64,000 nt of DNA from Actinomycetes bacterium (GTDB lineage: Bacteria > Actinomycetota > Acidimicrobiia > Spongiisociales > UBA5794): the NCBI GenBank assembly GCA_023336815.1, contig JAMBLJ010000036.1, forward strand, positions 13,991 to 77,990, given 5' to 3'. Made by a program: the position numbers and the translations under genes. Positions 9,077-48,067 of this stretch are shown in pieces; position 1 is the stretch's first letter; each line of letters starts with the position of its first letter. The notes below the pieces were generated by a model. That model worked only from the letters and a program-made list of their open reading frames with translations. It was not told where the DNA came from and did not search any database.

Positions 9077-9972
9077 CAGTTGCGGCCATCGACATCGGAT
9101 CGAACTCCCTGCGCCTGCTCGTCCTCGATCGGACGGGGGTAGAGCTTGAGCGCGATGTCACGGTCACGGGGCTTGGCTCCGGGATCGAAGCTACGGGTAC
9201 CTTCGATCCGCACGCAGTGGAACGTACACTCGATGTGATTAGCCGATACGCCGATGTGATCGCAAGTCACCCTGTGGAATTGCTGAAGGCGGTCGCGACG
9301 TCTGCGTCACGCGATGCCGCCAACGGTGAAGAGCTCATGATCGCGATAGATAACGCGCTGGGTGTCCGACCCGTCATCATTGATGGAGCCACCGAAGCGA
9401 GCCTTGCCTTCTTCGGTGCGACCATTGAGTCGTACCCTTCGGACCGGAAGCTCGTGATCGATATCGGAGGTGGCTCCACTGAGGTCGTCGTCGGCTATGA
9501 ATCTGTTACCTACGCAACGAGTATTGACATAGGTTCCGTCCGGTTGACCGACGCCTTCGTAGCCGACCGTCCGGTGGCACCGGACGTCCTCGACGCGATG
9601 CGAGCTCACACAGATAGAGCATTCGGTCAGGTTGCGTTGGTCGGCCCCGTAGATCAAGCGATCGGTGTGGCGGGTACGCTGACCAATCTCTCAGCGATGG
9701 CGATGCATCTGGAGATGTACGATCGCTCGGTCGTTGACGGGTCGTATATTTCCCTCGCCGTGATCTCTGATCTCATCGAGGAACTTTCCACGCTCACGAT
9801 CGCTGAGACCGAGATGATCCCTTCTCTCGATCCGAAGAGGGCCAGAGTCATCCTGGCTGGAGCGGTCATTGCTCACAGCATCATGACACGTTGCGATATC
9901 AGTGGCCTCCGTATCTCCGAGAGGGACCTGCTCGACGGACTCGCTAGGGAACTGCTCCAGGCGATCGACTGA
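9073..9972 (+). CDS. Ppx/GppA family exopolyphosphatase/guanosine pentaphosphate phosphohydrolase
   Basis: ATGA overlap with previous stop; N-terminal AAIDIGSNSLRLLV actin-like ATPase fold motif of Ppx/GppA; 299 aa (short actinobacterial form). Confidence 0.88.
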   Translation: MTVAAIDIGSNSLRLLVLDRTGVELERDVTVTGLGSGIEATGTFDPHAVERTLDVISRYADVIASHPVELLKAVATSASRDAANGEELMIAIDNALGVRPVIIDGATEASLAFFGATIESYPSDRKLVIDIGGGSTEVVVGYESVTYATSIDIGSVRLTDAFVADRPVAPDVLDAMRAHTDRAFGQVALVGPVDQAIGVAGTLTNLSAMAMHLEMYDRSVVDGSYISLAVISDLIEELSTLTIAETEMIPSLDPKRARVILAGAVIAHSIMTRCDISGLRISERDLLDGLARELLQAID

Positions 9973-9977
9973 CATAG

Positions 9978-39544: not shown

Positions 39545-40780
39545 ATGAGCGATATCGAGATACGTCCCGTAACAGAAGCAGAGTTCGGAAACTTCACCGC
39601 TGCCATCTCTGAGGGATTCTCGAGCGATCTACGGGAAGTCATCGCCGAACGCGACCGCAGGGCCTTCCCTGTCGAACGCACCCTCGCTGCGTTCGACGGT
39701 GCGACGATCGTTGGAACCTTCGGAGGTCTCGATCTGACCCTCACCGTACCCGGCGAACAACAGATCGCCATCGAGGGGACGACCATCGTCACCGTGTTTC
39801 CTACGCACCGCCGCATGGGTCTTCTTCGGTCCATGATGGATCAGCATCTTGAACTCGCGTACCAGCGTGGAGATGCTCTGGCCGGGCTGTGGTCGTCGTC
39901 CAGCGACATCTACGGTCGGTTCGGATACGGCATCGCAACACACAGCCGGTCGCTGGCGATCGAGGGATCGCAGATCATATTTCGCGACAGCGTTGCGGTC
40001 GAACGGGTCCGACGTGTGTCCCCAGAGACCGTTGAAAGTGAGATCAGGGATGTGTATGGCAGAGTTGCTCTGCGTACCCCTGGGATGTTCGCCCGCGATG
40101 ACCTCATATGGCGTGATCATGTACTCGCTGATGACGAGTGGAAGCGGGAGGGGAGTACGACACATCGCTTCGTTGTGCATGATGGACCAAAGGGCGTCGA
40201 TGGGTATGCGATCTATCGACAGAAGGCGTCTGAGTCCAACGACGGGCATCCCAACGGAACGGTCTCGATTGTCGAGGTCATCGCTGAGTCCGCGGTCGGC
40301 CGTGCCTCGTTGTGGGCATATCTCACCCGGATCGATGGGTGCCCGAACGTGCGGGTGGGCAACGCTCCGCTCGTGGACCCGCTCTCAGCAATGGTGACGC
40401 AGCCTCGACGTGTTGCGGTGACGGCTGTGTACGACGCCCTCTGGATCCGGGTGCTTGATGTCGCGACCGCTCTTAGCACCCGACGATATGAGACCGATGG
40501 GTCGCTCGTCTTCGAGGTACTGGATTCGTTCCGCCCCGAATCAGCCGGTATCTATCGGCTCACCGTCGAGGGAGGGATCGGTACGTGTGGACGTAGCGAC
40601 GCCGACGCCAACGCTGACCTTCGTATCGACGTCGAAGCGCTCGGCGCCCTGTATCTCGGTGGAGGAAATGCCAACCACCTTGCTGATGCTGGCAGGGTTG
40701 TTGGATCGGCGGAGGCACTGCGTACGTTGCACCGCATGTTCCATACCGACGAACAACCCTGGTGCAACTGGGTGTTTTAG
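39545..40780 (+). CDS. GNAT family N-acetyltransferase, Eis-like (GNAT + central + C-terminal SCP2-like domain)
   Basis: 411 aa; N-terminal GNAT (MGLLRSMMDQHLELAYQRGDALAGLWSS, YGRFGYG), overall length/architecture of Eis family. Confidence 0.7.
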   Translation: MSDIEIRPVTEAEFGNFTAAISEGFSSDLREVIAERDRRAFPVERTLAAFDGATIVGTFGGLDLTLTVPGEQQIAIEGTTIVTVFPTHRRMGLLRSMMDQHLELAYQRGDALAGLWSSSSDIYGRFGYGIATHSRSLAIEGSQIIFRDSVAVERVRRVSPETVESEIRDVYGRVALRTPGMFARDDLIWRDHVLADDEWKREGSTTHRFVVHDGPKGVDGYAIYRQKASESNDGHPNGTVSIVEVIAESAVGRASLWAYLTRIDGCPNVRVGNAPLVDPLSAMVTQPRRVAVTAVYDALWIRVLDVATALSTRRYETDGSLVFEVLDSFRPESAGIYRLTVEGGIGTCGRSDADANADLRIDVEALGALYLGGGNANHLADAGRVVGSAEALRTLHRMFHTDEQPWCNWVF

Positions 40781-40782
40781 GT

Positions 40783-40866
40783 AGACAGCAGACAGCAGAC
40801 AGCAGATGACAGATGGCAGATGACAGACGGCAGACAGCAGACGGCAGACAGCAGATGACAGACGGC
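40783..40866. repeat. 12 tandem copies of 7-bp repeat AGA(C/T)(A/G)GC (consensus AGACAGC)
   Basis: Read directly: agacagc x3, agatgac, agatggc, agatgac, agacggc, agacagc, agacggc, agacagc, agatgac, agacggc in perfect 7-bp phase. Confidence 0.95.
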
Positions 40867-40868
40867 AC

Positions 40869-40903
40869 GTTTTCCGTTTTCCGTTTTCCGTTTTCCGTTT
40901 TCC
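40869..40903. repeat. 5 perfect tandem copies of GTTTTCC
   Basis: gttttcc x5 contiguous, 2 nt after the AGACAGC array. Confidence 0.97.
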
Positions 40904-40984
40904 GAAGAGGGTGTAGGTGGGCGGCGACGAATGCCGCGTGCTGATCAGTGCCGCAGCACCGGTTCGTCTTCTTGATTCCTGCCT

Positions 40985-41054
40985 CGGAGAACGGAAAACG
41001 GAAAACGAAAAGGCCATCAGCCATCAGCCGTCAGCCGTCAGCCGTCAGCCGGAA
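40985..41054. repeat. 10 phased heptamers: CGGAGAA CGGAAAA CGGAAAA CGAAAAG then GCCATCA x2, GCCGTCA x3, GCCGGAA
   Basis: Read directly; GGAAAAC units are the reverse complement of the upstream GTTTTCC array (inverted symmetry about an ~80-bp core containing CTGATCAG). Confidence 0.95.
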
Positions 41055-41071
41055 CCTGCAACGGTTTCTTC

Positions 41072-41094
41072 CCGGAGAACGGGAAACGGAAAAC
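41072..41094. repeat. direct repeat of CGGAGAACGG(G)AAACGGAAAACGA (second copy of 40985-41007)
   Basis: cggagaacgggaaacggaaaacga vs cggagaacggaaaacggaaaacga, 23/24 identical, flanking the GCCGTCA array. Confidence 0.9.
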
Positions 41095-41234
41095 GATGTC
41101 TCCTCCTTTCTCAATTCGTCTGCTTCTCCGTTCCGTGATAGGTTCAGCAATCCTCCCCGGGCCGGGCATCGACCCGAGAGGCTTGACAGCTCAACGTTGC
41201 CCGCTCCTTGAGGATGATTCCGAGGAGACGACAG

Positions 41235-44200
41235 ATGAGCACAAGATTCCCGCTGTACAACCCGCTGGAGCACCACGATGCGTGTGGTGTCGGGTTCATC
41301 GTTGACCGGTCGGCTACAGCATCGCACCGTATCGTTCGCCAGGGTGTCGAGTGTTTGCACAATCTCGACCATCGCGGTGCCCGTTCTCAGGATGGAACGG
41401 GTGATGGAGCAGGGATGATGACGAGGATCCCGTTTCGTCTCATCGAACGAGATCTTCGCACGAAGGCGATCGCTGTCCCCGACCGCAGCCGTATCGGTGT
41501 GATCACTGCGTTCCTCGACCCTGACGAAGCCGTGGGGGCTCGAAAGGCAGTAGAACGAGCCGTCGCTGACAACGACATGACCACGCTCACGTGGCGCCCC
41601 GTTCCAATCGATCCAAACATTCTGTCGGAAACTGCACGTGCATCGATGCCCGTGATCGAACAAGCGATCATCGAGTCATCCGAAGTCATATCCTCGTCAG
41701 ACCGGTTCGAGCGGTCGCTGTTCCTCGCTCGCAAGTCCATCGAGAACCGCCCGGTTGCGGGATGTGAGATCGTTTCGGCGTCAAGCCGAACGATCGTCTA
41801 TAAAGGGTTGTTCACCGCAGACACGATCGAAGCCTTCTACTGGGATCTGCGGGACCCGGTGTACGAGTCCGATTTCGTCATATTCCACCAGCGGTATTCA
41901 ACGAACACGAAACCTTCCTGGGCCCTGGCGCAGCCATTCAGGATGCTCGCCCATAACGGCGAGATCAACACAGTGCAGGGCAACAGATCGTCCATGGCTG
42001 CACGGTCGAACGACCTCGTCGAAGGGGTGTGGGGGACGCGTGTCTCTGAACTCGCCCCTCTCGTGCGATCGGGGATCGGTAGTGACTCAGCAAGCCTGGA
42101 CGAGGCTGTCGAGGTGCTTGTTCGCTCCGGGCGAGACCTCACTCATGTGAAGGAGATGCTGATACCCCAGGCGTGGGAGAACGTTCCCGATCTCGATCCG
42201 AAGTTGCAGGCGTTCTACGAGTACCACGCATTCCTTACCGAGCCGTGGGACGGACCGGCGGCTATCGCTGCAAGCGATGGGCTCACACTCATCGCAGGTC
42301 TCGATCGCAACGGTTTACGTCCAGCGCGGTGGACGGTCACACCAGATACTGTGCTTATTGCGTCGGAAGCCGGCATCGCTCCTGAGGTCGAGGTGCTCGC
42401 CACTGATACGGGCCAGCTTGGGCCAGGTGAGGTCATCGAAGTGGATCTCGCCGACGGGACGCTTCGATTCTCTGACCATGTCAAACGTCGGCTTGCGGCG
42501 AAAGCTCCCTACGCGGATTGGATCACAACGAACACGCTCTACGTTCGTGATCCGTTCGACGACCTCCAGGATGACCGCTTTGATGCCGAAGCCCTGGCGC
42601 GTGTGTTCGGCTACACCGCCGAGGAGCGCAGGCTCCTGCTCGAACCGATGGCCGGGGGTATCGATCCCATCCTGTCGATGGGTCACGACTCCGGTCTTGC
42701 GGTCCTTTCCGAGTTCCCACAGCGGCTTCCGCGGTTCTTTCACCAAGCGTTCGCTCAGGTTACGAACCCGCCGATGGATCCGATCCGAGAGAAACTTGTC
42801 ATGTCGTTGCGAACCTATGTTGGCCGGCACGGGTCGCTGCTGGAGGAAACCGAACAACAGGCGCACATGGTGGAACTGTCATCTCCGATCCTGTCGGATG
42901 CGGACGTCGAGGAGCTGTGCACGCTCACTGACCCGGCGTTCCGGTCTAAGTGGTTTGATATCCTTTTCGACCCCTCAGCTGGATCGATGGTTGACCGACT
43001 GGACGAGATCTGTTCTGCGGTCGAGGACGCTGTTCGCTCAGGGGTGTCGATCATCGTGCTGAGCGACAGGGGAACCACTCCCGAGCTCGCCCCCATCCCC
43101 ATCGTGCTTGCTGTTGGCGCTGTTCACCACAGGCTCATCGACACGGGTCTTCGGCTCCATGCGTCGATCATCGCCGTTTCGGGAGAACCGCGCGATGCGC
43201 ATGACATCGCGTGTTGCGTCGGGTTCGGTGCTGCCGCGGTGAATCCGTATCTTGCTATCGAGCAGGTTCGGGCACTCGCAGTAGAAGGCGCCATCACGCT
43301 TGGCGCCGTCGAGGCACAGGAGAACTACCGGTCAAGCCTTGAGAATGGCTTGCTGAAGGTCATGTCGAAGATGGGGATCTGCACCGTCAAATCGTACCGG
43401 TCGTCGGAGCTGTTCGAGGCGATCGGGCTTGATCCTGAGGTCTGTCAACTTGCATTCCGCAACGTGCACAGCAGGGTTGGCGGCCGCGGTCTCGCAGCGA
43501 TCCAGGACGATGCCGTCGCGCGTCACTCCAGGTACGTGAGCGAGGAAGCCGAGGTTGAGGGGTACTACAAACACCGCAGGGGCGGGATGCCGCATGTGGC
43601 CGCACCGATGGCAGTCCTGGCACTTCAGAAGGCTGTAAGAAGTGGTGACCAGATCGATTTCGAGCGATATCTGGATCTGGTTCAGGAAAGTCGCCCGGCC
43701 CTCGAACTCAGAGACCTGCTCGAGATAATGCCGTTCGGCCCCCCCGTTGCTGTTGAGAACGTCGAACCGATCGAGTCGATCATGCGTAGGTTCGTTACGG
43801 CAGCCATGTCGATGGGTGCGGTATCGAAGGAGGTCCACGAGACCCTCGCCGCGGCCATGCACAGGATCGGTGGCCGGTCGAATTCTGGTGAGGGCGGAGA
43901 GGATCCCTCGCGATTCGCTACGGACCGAAACTCCGTGATCAAGCAGGTTGCGAGCGGGAGATTTGGTGTGACTCCCGGATACCTCGCTTCTGCCGACGAG
44001 ATCCAGATCAAGATGGCACAGGGATCGAAACCTGGTGAAGGGGGCCAGCTGCCTGGGCACAAAGTATCTGTCGAGATCGCACGGCTCAGACACACCGAGC
44101 CGGGTATCACACTCATCTCGCCACCGCCCCACCATGACATCTACTCGATCGAGGACCTCGCCCAACTGATATATGACCTCAAGACGTTCAAGCCGACGGC

Positions 44201-45644
44201 GCGTGTTGCGGTAAAGCTCGTATCGGGGCCTGGTATCGGAACGATCGCTGTTGGTGTCGCCAAGGCATCTGCAGACGGGATCACCGTCTCCGGCAATGCC
44301 GGGGGCACGGGGGCATCGCCTGTCGTGTCGATGAAACACGCAGGGTCGCCATGGGAACTCGGTCTCGCTGAGGCGCATCAATCGCTCGTAGCCAACGGTC
44401 TGCGTTCTGCGGTCAGCGTCGAAACGGATGGCGGCTTGCGAACGGGACGTGACATCGTGGTCGCTGCCCTGCTCGGTGCTGATCGGTTCGGGTTCGGCAC
44501 CCTGCCCCTGCTTGCTCTGGGGTGCAAGATGGTGCGCCAATGCCACGAGAACACCTGCCCTGTCGGGATCGCAACACAACGCGACGATCTGCGAGCCAAG
44601 TACACCGGTTCCGTGGAACAGGTCGTCGCCCTGTTCGAGTTGATAGCGAGCGACGTGCGCTCGATCCTGGCCAGGATGGGCGCACGATCCCTCGACTCGA
44701 TCATCGGTCGCGGTGATCTGCTCGCGGCAACTGACGAAGGCCCGGGATCAGACCTCGCCTCGATGCTGGTGAGCGCACGGTCCGAGACGGATCGACGTTT
44801 CCGCGAACTCCCCGCGTCACCGCTTGGCGAGCAGTTGGCCTTCGCTGGTCGCTCGGTGCTCGATGGGAGGGATTCGCTCTCTGTTGCGTATCCCATCAGG
44901 AACACGGATCGGGCTGTAGGAACGAGACTCTCTGGTGAGATCGCAGCACGTCACGGAGATGCCGGATTGGTCGACCGGCGCTTCACTGTCCGTCTATCAG
45001 GTACAGCCGGTCAGTCGTTCGGTGCGTTCCTTGTGGAGGGTGTACATCTGGACCTCGATGGTGTTGCAAACGACTACGTTGGCAAAGGGATGGCAGGCGG
45101 TTCGATCGTGATCCGACCATTTACGGATTCACCCTCGATCCCGCACGGTGGTGGAAATGCCTGTCTCTATGGAGCCACGGGTGGCGAGTTGTTCATCGCC
45201 GGCAGCGTTGGTCAACGCTTCGCGGTCCGTAACTCCGGAGCCACCGCTGTCGTGGAGGGTGCGTCTGACCATGCGTGTGAATACATGACGGGGGGCAAGA
45301 TCGTCGTTCTCGGCCCTGCCGGTCGCAACATCGCTGCGGGTATGAGCGGGGGAGTGTTGTTTCTGTACGACGAAGCGATGACGATCAAGGCGCACATGTC
45401 CGACACAGCGCCTGCTGCAACGAGACTCGCGGCGACCGACCGTGACGAGCTACGGCTTCTCTTGATGGAGCACCTGGCCCGCACCGGGTCACGTGCAGCG
45501 GCAGCGCTTCTCGGTGGCTGGCACCAAGCCCAGGACCGATTCTGGGTGGTGAGACCAAAGGCGCCTCTGACTGATGGTGCGTTGGATGTCACGGAGGTTG
45601 AAGCGCAGAAATCAGACACCAGACACCAGACGACAGACACATAG
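41235..45644 (+). CDS. gltB: glutamate synthase large subunit (GOGAT alpha)
   Basis: 1469 aa; N-terminal Ntn amidotransferase Cys (HDACGVGF), central domain, FMN domain (GEGGEDPSRF...), C-terminal GXGXG beta-helix domain; ATG at 41235 chosen over TTG at 41208. Confidence 0.95.
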   Translation: MSTRFPLYNPLEHHDACGVGFIVDRSATASHRIVRQGVECLHNLDHRGARSQDGTGDGAGMMTRIPFRLIERDLRTKAIAVPDRSRIGVITAFLDPDEAVGARKAVERAVADNDMTTLTWRPVPIDPNILSETARASMPVIEQAIIESSEVISSSDRFERSLFLARKSIENRPVAGCEIVSASSRTIVYKGLFTADTIEAFYWDLRDPVYESDFVIFHQRYSTNTKPSWALAQPFRMLAHNGEINTVQGNRSSMAARSNDLVEGVWGTRVSELAPLVRSGIGSDSASLDEAVEVLVRSGRDLTHVKEMLIPQAWENVPDLDPKLQAFYEYHAFLTEPWDGPAAIAASDGLTLIAGLDRNGLRPARWTVTPDTVLIASEAGIAPEVEVLATDTGQLGPGEVIEVDLADGTLRFSDHVKRRLAAKAPYADWITTNTLYVRDPFDDLQDDRFDAEALARVFGYTAEERRLLLEPMAGGIDPILSMGHDSGLAVLSEFPQRLPRFFHQAFAQVTNPPMDPIREKLVMSLRTYVGRHGSLLEETEQQAHMVELSSPILSDADVEELCTLTDPAFRSKWFDILFDPSAGSMVDRLDEICSAVEDAVRSGVSIIVLSDRGTTPELAPIPIVLAVGAVHHRLIDTGLRLHASIIAVSGEPRDAHDIACCVGFGAAAVNPYLAIEQVRALAVEGAITLGAVEAQENYRSSLENGLLKVMSKMGICTVKSYRSSELFEAIGLDPEVCQLAFRNVHSRVGGRGLAAIQDDAVARHSRYVSEEAEVEGYYKHRRGGMPHVAAPMAVLALQKAVRSGDQIDFERYLDLVQESRPALELRDLLEIMPFGPPVAVENVEPIESIMRRFVTAAMSMGAVSKEVHETLAAAMHRIGGRSNSGEGGEDPSRFATDRNSVIKQVASGRFGVTPGYLASADEIQIKMAQGSKPGEGGQLPGHKVSVEIARLRHTEPGITLISPPPHHDIYSIEDLAQLIYDLKTFKPTARVAVKLVSGPGIGTIAVGVAKASADGITVSGNAGGTGASPVVSMKHAGSPWELGLAEAHQSLVANGLRSAVSVETDGGLRTGRDIVVAALLGADRFGFGTLPLLALGCKMVRQCHENTCPVGIATQRDDLRAKYTGSVEQVVALFELIASDVRSILARMGARSLDSIIGRGDLLAATDEGPGSDLASMLVSARSETDRRFRELPASPLGEQLAFAGRSVLDGRDSLSVAYPIRNTDRAVGTRLSGEIAARHGDAGLVDRRFTVRLSGTAGQSFGAFLVEGVHLDLDGVANDYVGKGMAGGSIVIRPFTDSPSIPHGGGNACLYGATGGELFIAGSVGQRFAVRNSGATAVVEGASDHACEYMTGGKIVVLGPAGRNIAAGMSGGVLFLYDEAMTIKAHMSDTAPAATRLAATDRDELRLLLMEHLARTGSRAAAALLGGWHQAQDRFWVVRPKAPLTDGALDVTEVEAQKSDTRHQTTDT

Positions 45645-45660
45645 GCCACGTCTGTCGTCT
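45613..45660 (+). terminator. heptamer repeat (CAGACAC x4) forming the gltB 3' end plus 11-bp-stem hairpin spanning the stop codon
   Basis: cagacac cagacac cagacga cagacac (45613-45640); stem AGACGACAGAC (45628-45638) / GTCTGTCGTCT (45650-45660) with the TAG stop in the loop. Confidence 0.5.
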
Positions 45661-45956
45661 CACATCTGGAATCTGTTGGCTGTGAACTGATAGCTTCTTC
45701 TTCCTCTTCTTCTGCCGTCTTACCGACATTCTCTGGAACATTGCGGGTGTGCTTGACGTTGTCTGTATACGAGTTGCGGCTCTCCCGGGTGGCCCGGTCT
45801 TCCCCCACTCCCACTCGCAGTCACCCGGGTGAGTCGCACCAAGCTCACCTCCAACTGCTTGAGAAACATCGGTGTTCAACCTTCGAAATCCAGGTACACT
45901 GGTTTCACCTAGCCGCGTAGTGCAATCTCGGTTAGACCCATCAACGAGGAGCGATC

Positions 45957-47360
45957 GTGACCACAGTCGATATCGATCTTGGCAGCTATCAGCTCGGCTG
46001 GTCCGACGAAGAAGACTACGTTTTTAAGCCTGAGAAGGGTCTCGACGAGGAGCTCATCCGCACGATCTCGTCGATGAAGGGCGAGCCGGAGTGGATGCTT
46101 GACTTCCGTCTCAAGGCGTACAAGCGGTTCCTCAACAAGCCGACACCTCAGTGGGGTGGTGGTGGTCGTCTCGATGAGATCGACTACGACGACATCTACT
46201 ACTACATCAAGCCAACCGAGGGCCAGGCCAAGGATTGGGACATGGTTCCCGACTCCATCAAGGAGACGTACGAGAAGCTGGGTATCCCTGAGGCCGAGCG
46301 CAAGTTCCTCGCCGGTGTGACAGCGCAGTACGAGTCCGAGGTCGTGTACCACCGCAACCGTGAAGACCTTGAGAAACTCGGTGTCCTGTTCTGTGACATG
46401 GACACCGCGGTTCGGGAGTACCCCGAGCTCGTTCAGGAGTACTTCGGCACGATCATCCCGCCGAACGACAACAAATTCGCTGCGTTGAACTCGGCCGTAT
46501 GGTCCGGTGGCTCGTTCATCTACATTCCACCGGGTGTTCATCTCGAGGAGCCCCTTCAGGCGTACTTCCGTATCAACGCTGAGAGCATGGGTCAGTTCGA
46601 GAGAACACTGATCATCGTTGACGAGGGTGCGTTCTGTCACTACGTCGAGGGCTGTTCAGCCCCTACGTACACATCAGATTCTCTCCACGCAGCGGTTGTC
46701 GAGGTCGTCATCAAGGAAGGCGGCAGATGTCGCTACACGACGATCCAGAACTGGTCGAACAACGTCCTCAACCTCGTCACCAAGCGCGCAGCGGCATACA
46801 AGAACGCCACGATGGAATGGATCGATGGCAACCTCGGCTCCGGGCTCACGATGAAGTATCCGGCCGTGTGGCTGATGGAAGAGGGTGCGCACGGCGAGGT
46901 TCTCTCGATCGCCTTCGCCAACACAGGTCAGGTTCTCGATGCCGGAGCCAAGATGGTTCATGTTGCATCGAACACAACGTCACATATCACGTCAAAGTCG
47001 ATCAGCAAGGGTGGCGGACGTTCGATGTACCGGGGTCTCGTACGTGTTGAAGAGGGCGCAACGAACGCCAAGTCCTTTGTTATGTGTGACGCCCTGTTGC
47101 TCGACGAGGACTCTCGATCGGACACATACCCGTATATGGAGATCGAGGAGTCCAACGTCGACATCGGTCACGAAGCAACAGTGTCGAAGGTTGGTGAAGA
47201 TCAGTTGTTCTACCTCATGAGCAGGGGTCTCAGCGAGGCCCAGGCAACAGCCATGATCGTCGCAGGTTTCATCGAGCCGATCGTCAAGGAACTCCCGATG
47301 GAGTACGCAGTCGAGCTGAACCGCCTGATAGAGCTTCAGATGGAGGGCTCCATCGGATAG
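45957..47360 (+). CDS. sufB: Fe-S cluster assembly protein SufB
   Basis: 467 aa; GTG start with AGGAG RBS; SufB core ([22 protein letters not shown], beta-helix region) ; no sufC/sufD/sufS downstream. Confidence 0.85.
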
Positions 47361-47407: not shown

Positions 47408-48067
47408 ATGCGTATTCGAATAGCTGAGTGCACTGTCCGCTATGAGGGACGTCTCAACGCGTATCTGCCATCAGCCACGCGTCTGGTGATGGTCAAGGCC
47501 GATGGTTGTGTTGCCATCCATGCAGATGGTGGTGCGTACAAACCGCTCAACTGGATGAACGCTCCGAACACGTTGACCGAGGACGATCACCAGTGGATCG
47601 TCATCAACCCGAAGGGCGAGAAACTTATCATCGACTTCGGTGAGATCCACTTCGAGACTGCTCTCGAGATGGGCGAGGATCCCGGTCTTCAGAAGGATGG
47701 CGTGGAACTGGAGCTACAGCGGCTCCTGGCCGAAAGACCGGAAACCTTTGGCGAACGCATGGAACTTGTGCGACGTGAGTTCCCAACCCCCATCGGCCCT
47801 GTGGACCTCCTGTGTAGAGATGGCGACGGTGTCTCGGTTGCCATCGAGATCAAGCGTCGTGGCGAGATCGACGGTGTTGAGCAGCTGACGCGATACCTCG
47901 ACTTCTTGAATCGGGACACGAGGTTGGCTCCCGTTCGTGGCATATTCGCCGCCCAGTCAATCAAACCGCAGGCGAAGCTTCTCTGCGAGGACCGTGGCAT
48001 CGTATGGGTAGAGGTCGACTACGACGATCTCAAAGGGACGGATTCCGACGTGATGAAGCTCTTCTGA
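47408..48067 (+). CDS. nucS: endonuclease NucS (EndoMS, mismatch-specific RecB-like nuclease)
   Basis: 219 aa; N-terminal [21 protein letters not shown]...[14 protein letters not shown] closely matching mycobacterial NucS pattern; C-terminal RecB-like nuclease motifs (D..E.K: [20 protein letters not shown]). Confidence 0.88.

Follow-up and report, generated by a model that had tools for sequence, protein, structure and literature searches.

A dense locus of tandem heptamer arrays with nested inverted symmetry between an Eis-like gene and gltB in an Actinomycetes bacterium

The analysed stretch of DNA, referred to here as the window, comprises 64 kb of contig JAMBLJ010000036.1 from the metagenome-assembled genome (MAG) of an Actinomycetes bacterium (GCA_023336815.1). 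In the window, an Eis-like gene is followed by gltB, sufB and nucS, and the 454-bp spacer between the Eis-like gene and gltB (40781-41234) is the subject of this work. From 40783 to 41095, this spacer carries five heptamer arrays detected with Tandem Repeats Finder (TRF), the first of which begins 2 nt after the TAG stop codon of the Eis-like gene (40778-40780). The locus is probably a set of heptanucleotide simple sequence repeats (SSRs) and not an array of regulator binding sites. The coordinates of the features are collected in Table 1.

Table 1. Features of the Eis-gltB region in window coordinates
Feature	Position	Strand	Evidence and remarks
Eis-like acetyltransferase gene (GNAT-GNAT-SCP2)	39545-40780	+	Pfam Acetyltransf_9, Acetyltransf_17, SCP2_2
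Array 1, (AGAYRRC)x12	40783-40866	+	TRF scores 76-123; outer left arm
Array 2, (CGTTTTC)x5.3, perfect	40868-40904	+	TRF 100% matches, score 74; inner left arm
Unique core, 80 bp, hairpin loop	40905-40984	.	Between arrays 2 and 3
Array 3, (CGGARAA)x3.9	40985-41011	+	TRF; inner right arm
Array 4, (GCCRTCA)x5.6	41013-41051	+	TRF score 64; outer right arm
Array 5, (CGGRRAA)x3.3	41073-41095	+	TRF; ends 18 bp before the -35-like hexamer
Predicted gltB core promoter	41114-41144	+	-35-like ATTCGT 41114-41119; extended -10 TGATAGGTT 41136-41144
Glutamate synthase large subunit (gltB)	41235-45644	+	Pfam GATase_2, Glu_syn_central, Glu_synthase, GXGXG
Second heptamer locus	45613-45670	+	(CAGACAC)x4 then inverted copy GTCTGTCGTCT; TRF, fold
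sufB	45957-47360		
nucS	47408-48067		

Array structure and inverted symmetry

An earlier note on this DNA had described five blocks of tandem heptamers in strict 7-bp phase. All five blocks were recovered where it had placed them, but the strict phase did not hold, as the starts of the two CGGA-type arrays (3 and 5) differ by 88 bp (4 mod 7), which puts them out of the 7-bp register. The direct repeat that the note had seen is present, with 41073-41096 matching 40985-41008 at 23 of 24 positions, although its copies are accordingly 4 nt out of register. The first block had been given as 12 units of AGA(C/T)(A/G)GC; the twelve units stand, but three of them read AGATGAC, so that the true consensus is AGAYRRC. 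Units of this array vary at positions 4-6 only and show a higher-order period of 35 bp. Arrays 4 and 5 are separated by a 21-bp spacer. The palindrome noted in the core is likewise present (CTGATCAG, 40941-40948), but at 8 bp it is not unusual by chance. A second copy of the 80-bp core was found with blastn neither in the window nor in any fetched locus. All differences between units within the arrays of 40783-41095 are transitions (C/T or A/G), which fits either a mutational bias or tolerated G-U pairs in an RNA helix.

The inverted symmetry between the GTTTTCC and GGAAAAC units, also pointed out earlier, was borne out and extends further than described. The two kinds of unit pair through arms of 23-28 nt that are 91-96% complementary (inverted repeats I1-I10), with array 3 complementary to array 2 at 93-96%. 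Since the outer arrays are also complementary to each other, array 1 to array 4 at 30 of 39 positions, the segment 40783-41051 constitutes a nested quasi-palindrome of ~270 nt around the 80-bp core. Arrays 1 and 4 are paired in both the RNA and the DNA fold of the region, which have predicted energies of -139 kcal/mol (z = -7.8) and -63.8 kcal/mol (z = -7.2), respectively. The arms are imperfect and unequal, with 84+37 nt on the left and 27+39 nt on the right, and array 5, the third GGAAAAC-type array, lies outside the quasi-palindrome.

The five arrays are far beyond chance. Six period-7 runs scoring at least 10 were found in the 64-kb window, with scores up to 30, whereas order-2 Markov simulations of 64 kb gave a mean of 0.18 such runs and a maximum score of 12. 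Among periods 4-12, tandem runs in the window occur with period 7 only.

The outer parts of the locus are independently corroborated by two Logan contigs from run SRR15671255, which match the window with 100% identity as far as 40897 and again from 41026; array 1 is complete and identical in one of them (L001). Both contigs break inside arrays, namely the GTTTTCC and the GCCGTCA array, leaving 40898-41025 uncovered, and for this reason the core and the exact copy numbers derive from the MAG assembly alone.

Heptamer arrays in related and unrelated loci

The gene order luciferase-like gene-Eis-gltB-sufB-nucS is kept in seven relatives (L006, L007, L022, L209/L210, L211/L212, L213 and L214), the gltB genes of which are 72-81% identical to that of the window. 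Their Eis-gltB spacers are 111-256 bp long, compared to 454 bp in the window, and contain none of its arrays; five of the seven have no heptamer run at all. The remaining two carry one short run each, a 2.6-copy CTGTTGG run in L006 and a degenerate (GTCTTCC) run in L022, 72 bp upstream of gltB. In a closer relative (L005, 87%), the contig reaches 319 bp upstream of gltB and carries no array over this distance. Where relatives do have heptamer arrays, the units differ from those of the window. The arrays between Eis and gltB are lineage-specific.

Conservation in the relatives is restricted to the -35/-10 region and the 5' untranslated region (5'UTR) and does not include the arrays. The motif TGATA (41136-41140 in the window) is invariant across nine aligned promoter-proximal regions (alignment A1), and in the closest relatives the ~90 nt of 5'UTR downstream of the predicted promoter are conserved as well. 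Because a strict sigma-70 consensus scan of 40600-41300 returned no promoter, with only three small, chance-level terminator-like sites in the region, the gltB promoter is predicted from conservation only. All arrays lie upstream of it and at least 18 bp from its -35-like hexamer. In three relatives that are 73-75% identical, a CRP/FNR-type palindrome (TGTGAA-N6-TTCACA) lies between the -35 and the extended -10 element of gltB (L209 ~9955-9975, L211 ~9950-9970, L213 ~2345-2365). The window and its closest relatives are without this CRP-like palindrome and have the longer conserved 5'UTR instead.

Heptamers also occur at the 3' end of gltB. In the second heptamer locus of the window, (CAGACAC)x4 encodes the last gltB codons and overlaps only the final 30 nt of the gene, and an 11-bp hairpin is formed with the inverted copy GTCTGTCGTCT located just past the stop codon. 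The unit CAGACAC is one substitution away from a rotation of the unit of array 1. L005, L006, L013 and L022 likewise have heptamer runs that coincide with the gltB stop or come right after it, and L213 has (AGAGTCA)x5.7 plus an inverted array after the stop, with the same heptamer unit at two spacers. In L013, the gltB of which is 60% identical, (GAACGCC)x4.6 upstream of gltB is followed by a core and an inverted copy, which reproduces the design of the window with an unrelated unit.

Overall, the flanking arrays of the relatives consist of differing units located 5' and/or 3' of gltB, often with an inverted copy (L013 9709-9917 and 14378-15330; L213 6737-6913 and 9202-9237; L022 6113-6137 and 10579-10609; L006 1896-1913 and 6468-6501; L005 4824-4843), and in several lineages the last gltB codons are written by a heptamer array. 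The gltB-sufB spacer of L013 (14378-15330, ~950 bp) is more complex, as it contains a ~140-bp tandem unit with a repetitive extragenic palindromic (REP)-like palindrome CCCAGGGGGGACGACCCCCCTTCGACCCCCCGCCGG and (GCGTTCT) heptamers, followed by a 9-mer array (GCCTTCCTC)n.

A survey of ~350 kb from 19 loci of the clade, centred on gltB, was used to examine how these arrays are distributed. All period-7 arrays with a TRF score of at least 39 lie no more than 700 bp from an end of gltB. All of them flank the gene directly except L014 2502-2529, which belongs to a different spacer and lies 674 bp before the start of gltB, and the only other sizeable array away from gltB has a score of 35 (L213 9202-9237). 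This enrichment may be biased, since the sampling is centred on gltB and the gltB spacers are the longest nearby.

The units of the window are not specific to gltB and were also found in metagenomes and viral sequences. Perfect (GTTTTCC)3 was present in at least 120 metagenome contigs with G+C fractions of 0.29-0.71, and the following figures apply to the 120 contigs listed. In 80 of the (GTTTTCC)3 contigs (L089-L168), which were checked with tblastn, neither gltB nor Eis is encoded. Other tandem arrays in the listed contigs are overwhelmingly of period 7 (78 arrays), and among the remaining periods from 4 to 12 none accounts for more than 12 arrays. Their units are diverse, and 45 of the 120 contigs contain a second heptamer type. 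An inverted partner of the GGAAAAC type lies within 400 bp in 27 contigs, compared to 1-4 for control arrays of reversed or complemented units and nine for a direct partner. A simple sorting of the 120 arrays by ORF context placed 52 of them inside ORFs, but it was set aside as unreliable, since repeats and GC-rich DNA give rise to long spurious ORFs. For the background, gltB homologue loci among the matches listed were used, which are mostly distant homologues and contain 9 period-7 runs in 1.6 Mb.

In four of the metagenome loci (L117, L162, L090 and L208), the T-rich array begins just past a stop codon, and the A-rich array extends to just before the ribosome-binding site of the next gene. 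This design recurs in unrelated organisms (also in L187 and L195), where (GTTTTCC)n is followed by an AT-richer core of 60-170 bp and then by (GGAAAAC)n, so that inverted arrays bracket the spacer; alternatively, (GTTTTCC)n lies on the other strand directly before a start codon. Perfect arrays of three units were also detected in viral contigs, with 20 for (AGACAGC)3, 37 for (GCCGTCA)3 and 26 for (GTTTTCC)3, and some contigs have several sites. In the IMG/VR contigs L275, L278, L279, L294, L295 and others, (GTTTTCC)n occurs at two to three sites within 7-13 kb. As there are several sites per viral contig, heptamer SSRs of these units are common on phage-like DNA as well.

Origin and possible functions of the locus

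Taken together, the locus is most probably a heptanucleotide SSR of the long SSR (LSSR) or short tandemly repeated repetitive (STRR) type that was built by slippage; in the Eis transcript it may act as a 3'-terminal hairpin, and it probably does not represent operator sites. As in these classes, three or more head-to-tail copies occur beyond chance, period 7 is favoured, the arrays are intergenic, and they turn over among relatives. The locus adds to a known repeat class and is not a new kind; it is ordinary in kind and unusual in density. The earlier suggestion of slippage-prone repeats was supported in so far as the locus has turned over completely among relatives, as heptanucleotide SSRs do (PMC4692102; PMC4679880).

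The probable course of events is that the spacer grew to its present length from the 111-256 bp seen in the relatives by gaining heptanucleotide SSRs, with replication slippage in a 7-nt register building the arrays. Template switching between the arms of the quasi-palindrome, or selection for pairing, may then have matched the two sides. The outcome would be a hairpin of ~270 nt that starts 2 nt past the Eis stop codon. With low confidence, this hairpin may serve as a terminator lacking a U-tract, as an insulator or as a stabiliser of the 3' end of the Eis transcript, and the second heptamer hairpin might act likewise at the 3' end of gltB, also with low confidence. Effects of the arrays on gltB, if any, would be indirect and arise from read-through, the local structure of the DNA or the spacing of upstream DNA.

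Several known repeat systems resemble the locus. According to the accounts of the survey by Mrazek, Guo and Shah (2007) given in PMC4679880 and PMC4692102, heptanucleotides outnumber all other classes of long SSRs in those bacterial genomes that are rich in 5-11-nt repeats, long SSRs are attributed to polymerase slippage, and three actinobacterial genomes are among the ten richest in 5-11-nt repeats. As far as these accounts go, LSSRs and the present locus share intergenic head-to-tail heptamers, the dominance of period 7, the co-occurrence of several units and the proposed slippage origin, while five arrays of three unit families forming a nested quasi-palindrome in one spacer set the present locus apart. 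Xanthomonas genomes each contain ~185 intergenic GGGAATC arrays of 2-26 units, including 70-75 convergent pairs with the potential to form stem-loops or cruciforms, and the length and sequence of the arrays vary between related species while the loci are kept (PMC4692102). The intergenic position and the convergent pairs able to form stem-loops or cruciforms are similar here. However, the G-rich Xanthomonas units form G-quadruplexes, which the units of the window cannot, and the window nests two different unit families in one hairpin.

STRR heptamers of cyanobacteria were reportedly treated by Mazel in 1990. For cyanobacterial 7-bp STRRs, such as those between hupS and hupL, hairpins located at the 3' end of the upstream gene have been proposed to act as terminators or transcript stabilisers (PMC2670836). 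The window shares with them intergenic 7-bp tandem units that fold into hairpins, but it belongs to another phylum and has other units, and the STRR families consist of few units spread over hundreds of loci, a dispersal that the 64 kb read here do not show. The TAACTGA direct repeats of marine Beggiatoaceae are also intergenic heptamers close to gene boundaries, with a patchy phylogeny and unknown function (PMC4679880). They differ in having one dominant unit that is located in the 5'UTR before start codons and is almost never inverted, whereas the arrays described here are inverted and lie upstream of the predicted promoter.

A canonical intrinsic terminator was considered for the large hairpin and rejected, because its 5' arms are U-rich, its 3' arms are A-rich, and no U-tract trails it on either strand. 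Unrelated strong hairpins directly follow the Eis stop in L209 and L213 (z = -4.8 and -3.2); since the hairpin is significant in only two of the seven relatives, a conserved terminator position is only weakly indicated. Rfam searches returned one transfer RNA elsewhere for the whole window at gathering scores and only chance-level matches for the spacer at E<=10.

Several points weigh against the explanation as slippage-built SSRs with a hairpin at the end of the Eis transcript. The core and the copy numbers come from a short-read MAG assembly, and the source genome was read over 64 kb, too little to show a genome-wide dispersal of the repeats. The hairpin is without a U-tract on both strands and is not significant in five of the seven relatives. 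In addition, the arrays are concentrated at the flanks of gltB, which a purely neutral, generic process would not predict.

The last point leads to a different reading, which is considered unlikely but not negligible. Heptamer-array hairpins may have been created and kept repeatedly at both ends of gltB in this clade as a selected, sequence-independent and evolvable structural element. The basis for this is that the units turn over while the arrangement of array, spacer and inverted array persists in the window, L013, L213, L022 and L006. If true, such an element could act on the gltB transcript as an insulator or stabiliser, or slippage within it could tune gltB expression, and it would not be neutral SSR debris.

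A related alternative, judged to be rather improbable, is a tunable or contingency element, in which slippage would alter the copy number and thereby heritably change gltB expression through the geometry of the upstream DNA, cruciform extrusion or read-through from Eis, with selection keeping the arrays. For SSRs of this class, length differences between close relatives are documented (PMC4692102), and the complete difference of the locus among relatives, the clustering of strong arrays with differing units at the gltB flanks (window, L006, L013, L022 and L213) and the same succession of array, core and inverted array in front of gltB in L013, with the unrelated unit GAACGCC, would fit. However, of nine related lineages, five lack an array near gltB, and the gltB-centred sampling biases the enrichment estimate. 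Moreover, classical SSR phase variation in Haemophilus and Neisseria relies on units of 1-5 nt in an open reading frame (ORF), in the -35/-10 spacer or in the 5'UTR (PMC11868660, PMC12721329). Tandem repeats near a promoter, with a length that slippage can change, are common to both cases, but the classical examples concern surface or restriction genes, whereas here 7-nt units lie upstream of the -35 element of a housekeeping gene. A phase-variation locus of the classical type is not supported, as the arrays are in none of these three positions relative to the promoter predicted from conservation. Contingency control of gltB, as the earlier note had envisaged, is likewise positionally disfavoured because all arrays are upstream of the predicted -35-like element.

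The same note had also proposed an array of sites for an oligomeric regulator, with GlnR as the candidate. The operator of actinobacterial GlnR is GTnAC-n6-GAAAC. With up to one mismatch, this motif is absent from the spacer (40781-41234), and across the window it matches six times, fewer than the average of 11.8 in the shuffles. A single GAAAC-like pentamer is present, in a GGGAAAC unit, but there is no pair of a-site and b-site at the right spacing, and nothing of the kind is conserved upstream of the orthologous gltB genes; a GlnR operator is thus not supported. More generally, a site array for GlnR or another nitrogen regulator on DNA, or for a cold-shock protein on RNA, is very unlikely. 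The opposed GGAAAAC and GTTTTCC units and the single GGGAAAC unit near the promoter speak in its favour, and CspB is reported to bind heptamer repeats with one protein per unit, as far as can be taken from the citation in PMC4679880. On the other hand, the arrays are absent or minimal in the seven relatives that share the gene order and the promoter motif, three of which (L209, L211 and L213) show the CRP-like palindrome instead, and the same heptamer arrays occur at the 120 or more unrelated loci in organisms of very different G+C content. For a generic dispersed repeat, the note had expected arrays of identical copy number and sequence at many unrelated loci. The many unrelated loci come near to this case, but the copy numbers vary and the loci belong to other organisms.

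The two weakest explanations are both highly improbable. A small non-autonomous mobile element, similar to a miniature inverted-repeat transposable element (MITE) or a REP, with the heptamer arrays as terminal inverted repeats, would account for the look of a ~270-bp insertion with long inverted ends compared to the short spacers of the relatives, and REP-like palindromes are mixed with heptamer arrays beside gltB in L013. It is disfavoured because no target-site duplication is visible at 40781/41052 and the core has no further copies in the window or the fetched loci; in addition, a third GGAAAAC-type array lies outside the palindrome, and the imperfect, unequal and internally tandem arms are explained directly by slippage. 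An assembly artefact, in which a short-read assembler mis-joined or collapsed repeats so that architecture and copy numbers would be false, could be suspected from the Logan contigs ending inside the arrays and from the fact that k-mers give no size for arrays exceeding k-1, but these contigs match both sides including all of array 1, the adjacency of Eis and gltB is conserved in the seven relatives, and the non-repetitive core joins the two sides without conflict.

Neighbouring elements and implications

The gltB of the window stands alone, with sufB next downstream and not the small-subunit gene gltD. Its homologues bear the JGI name ferredoxin-type glutamate synthase, and the enzyme is probably of the single-subunit, ferredoxin-dependent glutamate synthase (Fd-GOGAT) type. 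The gltB product is 100% identical to a protein of the NCBI MAG 'Actinomycetia bacterium', and its nearest homologues are proteins of Acidimicrobiia and Actinomycetota MAGs.

Two further elements were observed in the gltB-sufB spacer. A strongly conserved element of ~65 nt (45775-45838, + strand), also present in L005, L006, L007 and L209-L214, consists of a 19-bp stem topped by an apical region, where four further pairs are predicted and the C-rich loop CUUCCCCCACUCCCACUCGC is invariant. The stem remains paired through many one-sided G-C/G-U/A-U changes, and Rfam gave no match to the element, even at E<=10. The element may be a small RNA, resembling those with C-rich loops such as actinobacterial 6C, or a suf leader. 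Upstream of sufB (45894-45922), a conserved -10-like TACACT is followed by the palindrome CACCTAGCCGCGTAGTG, also in L005, L007, L209, L211, L213 and L214, which looks like a putative sufB promoter with a SufR-type repressor operator.

For genome annotation, no operator of GlnR or another nitrogen regulator should be assigned to the arrays, the heptad 'ORFs' spanning them are artefacts, and the likely gltB promoter is the conserved one predicted downstream of the arrays. The locus adds an Acidimicrobiia-like example, with a nested quasi-palindrome of two unit families, to the poorly understood class of heptanucleotide repeats, and the metagenome survey shows inverted pairs of heptamer arrays to be common in organisms that are unrelated to each other. 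If the enrichment at the gltB flanks holds genome-wide, this clade would provide a tractable case for the selection of such repeats as structural RNA or DNA.

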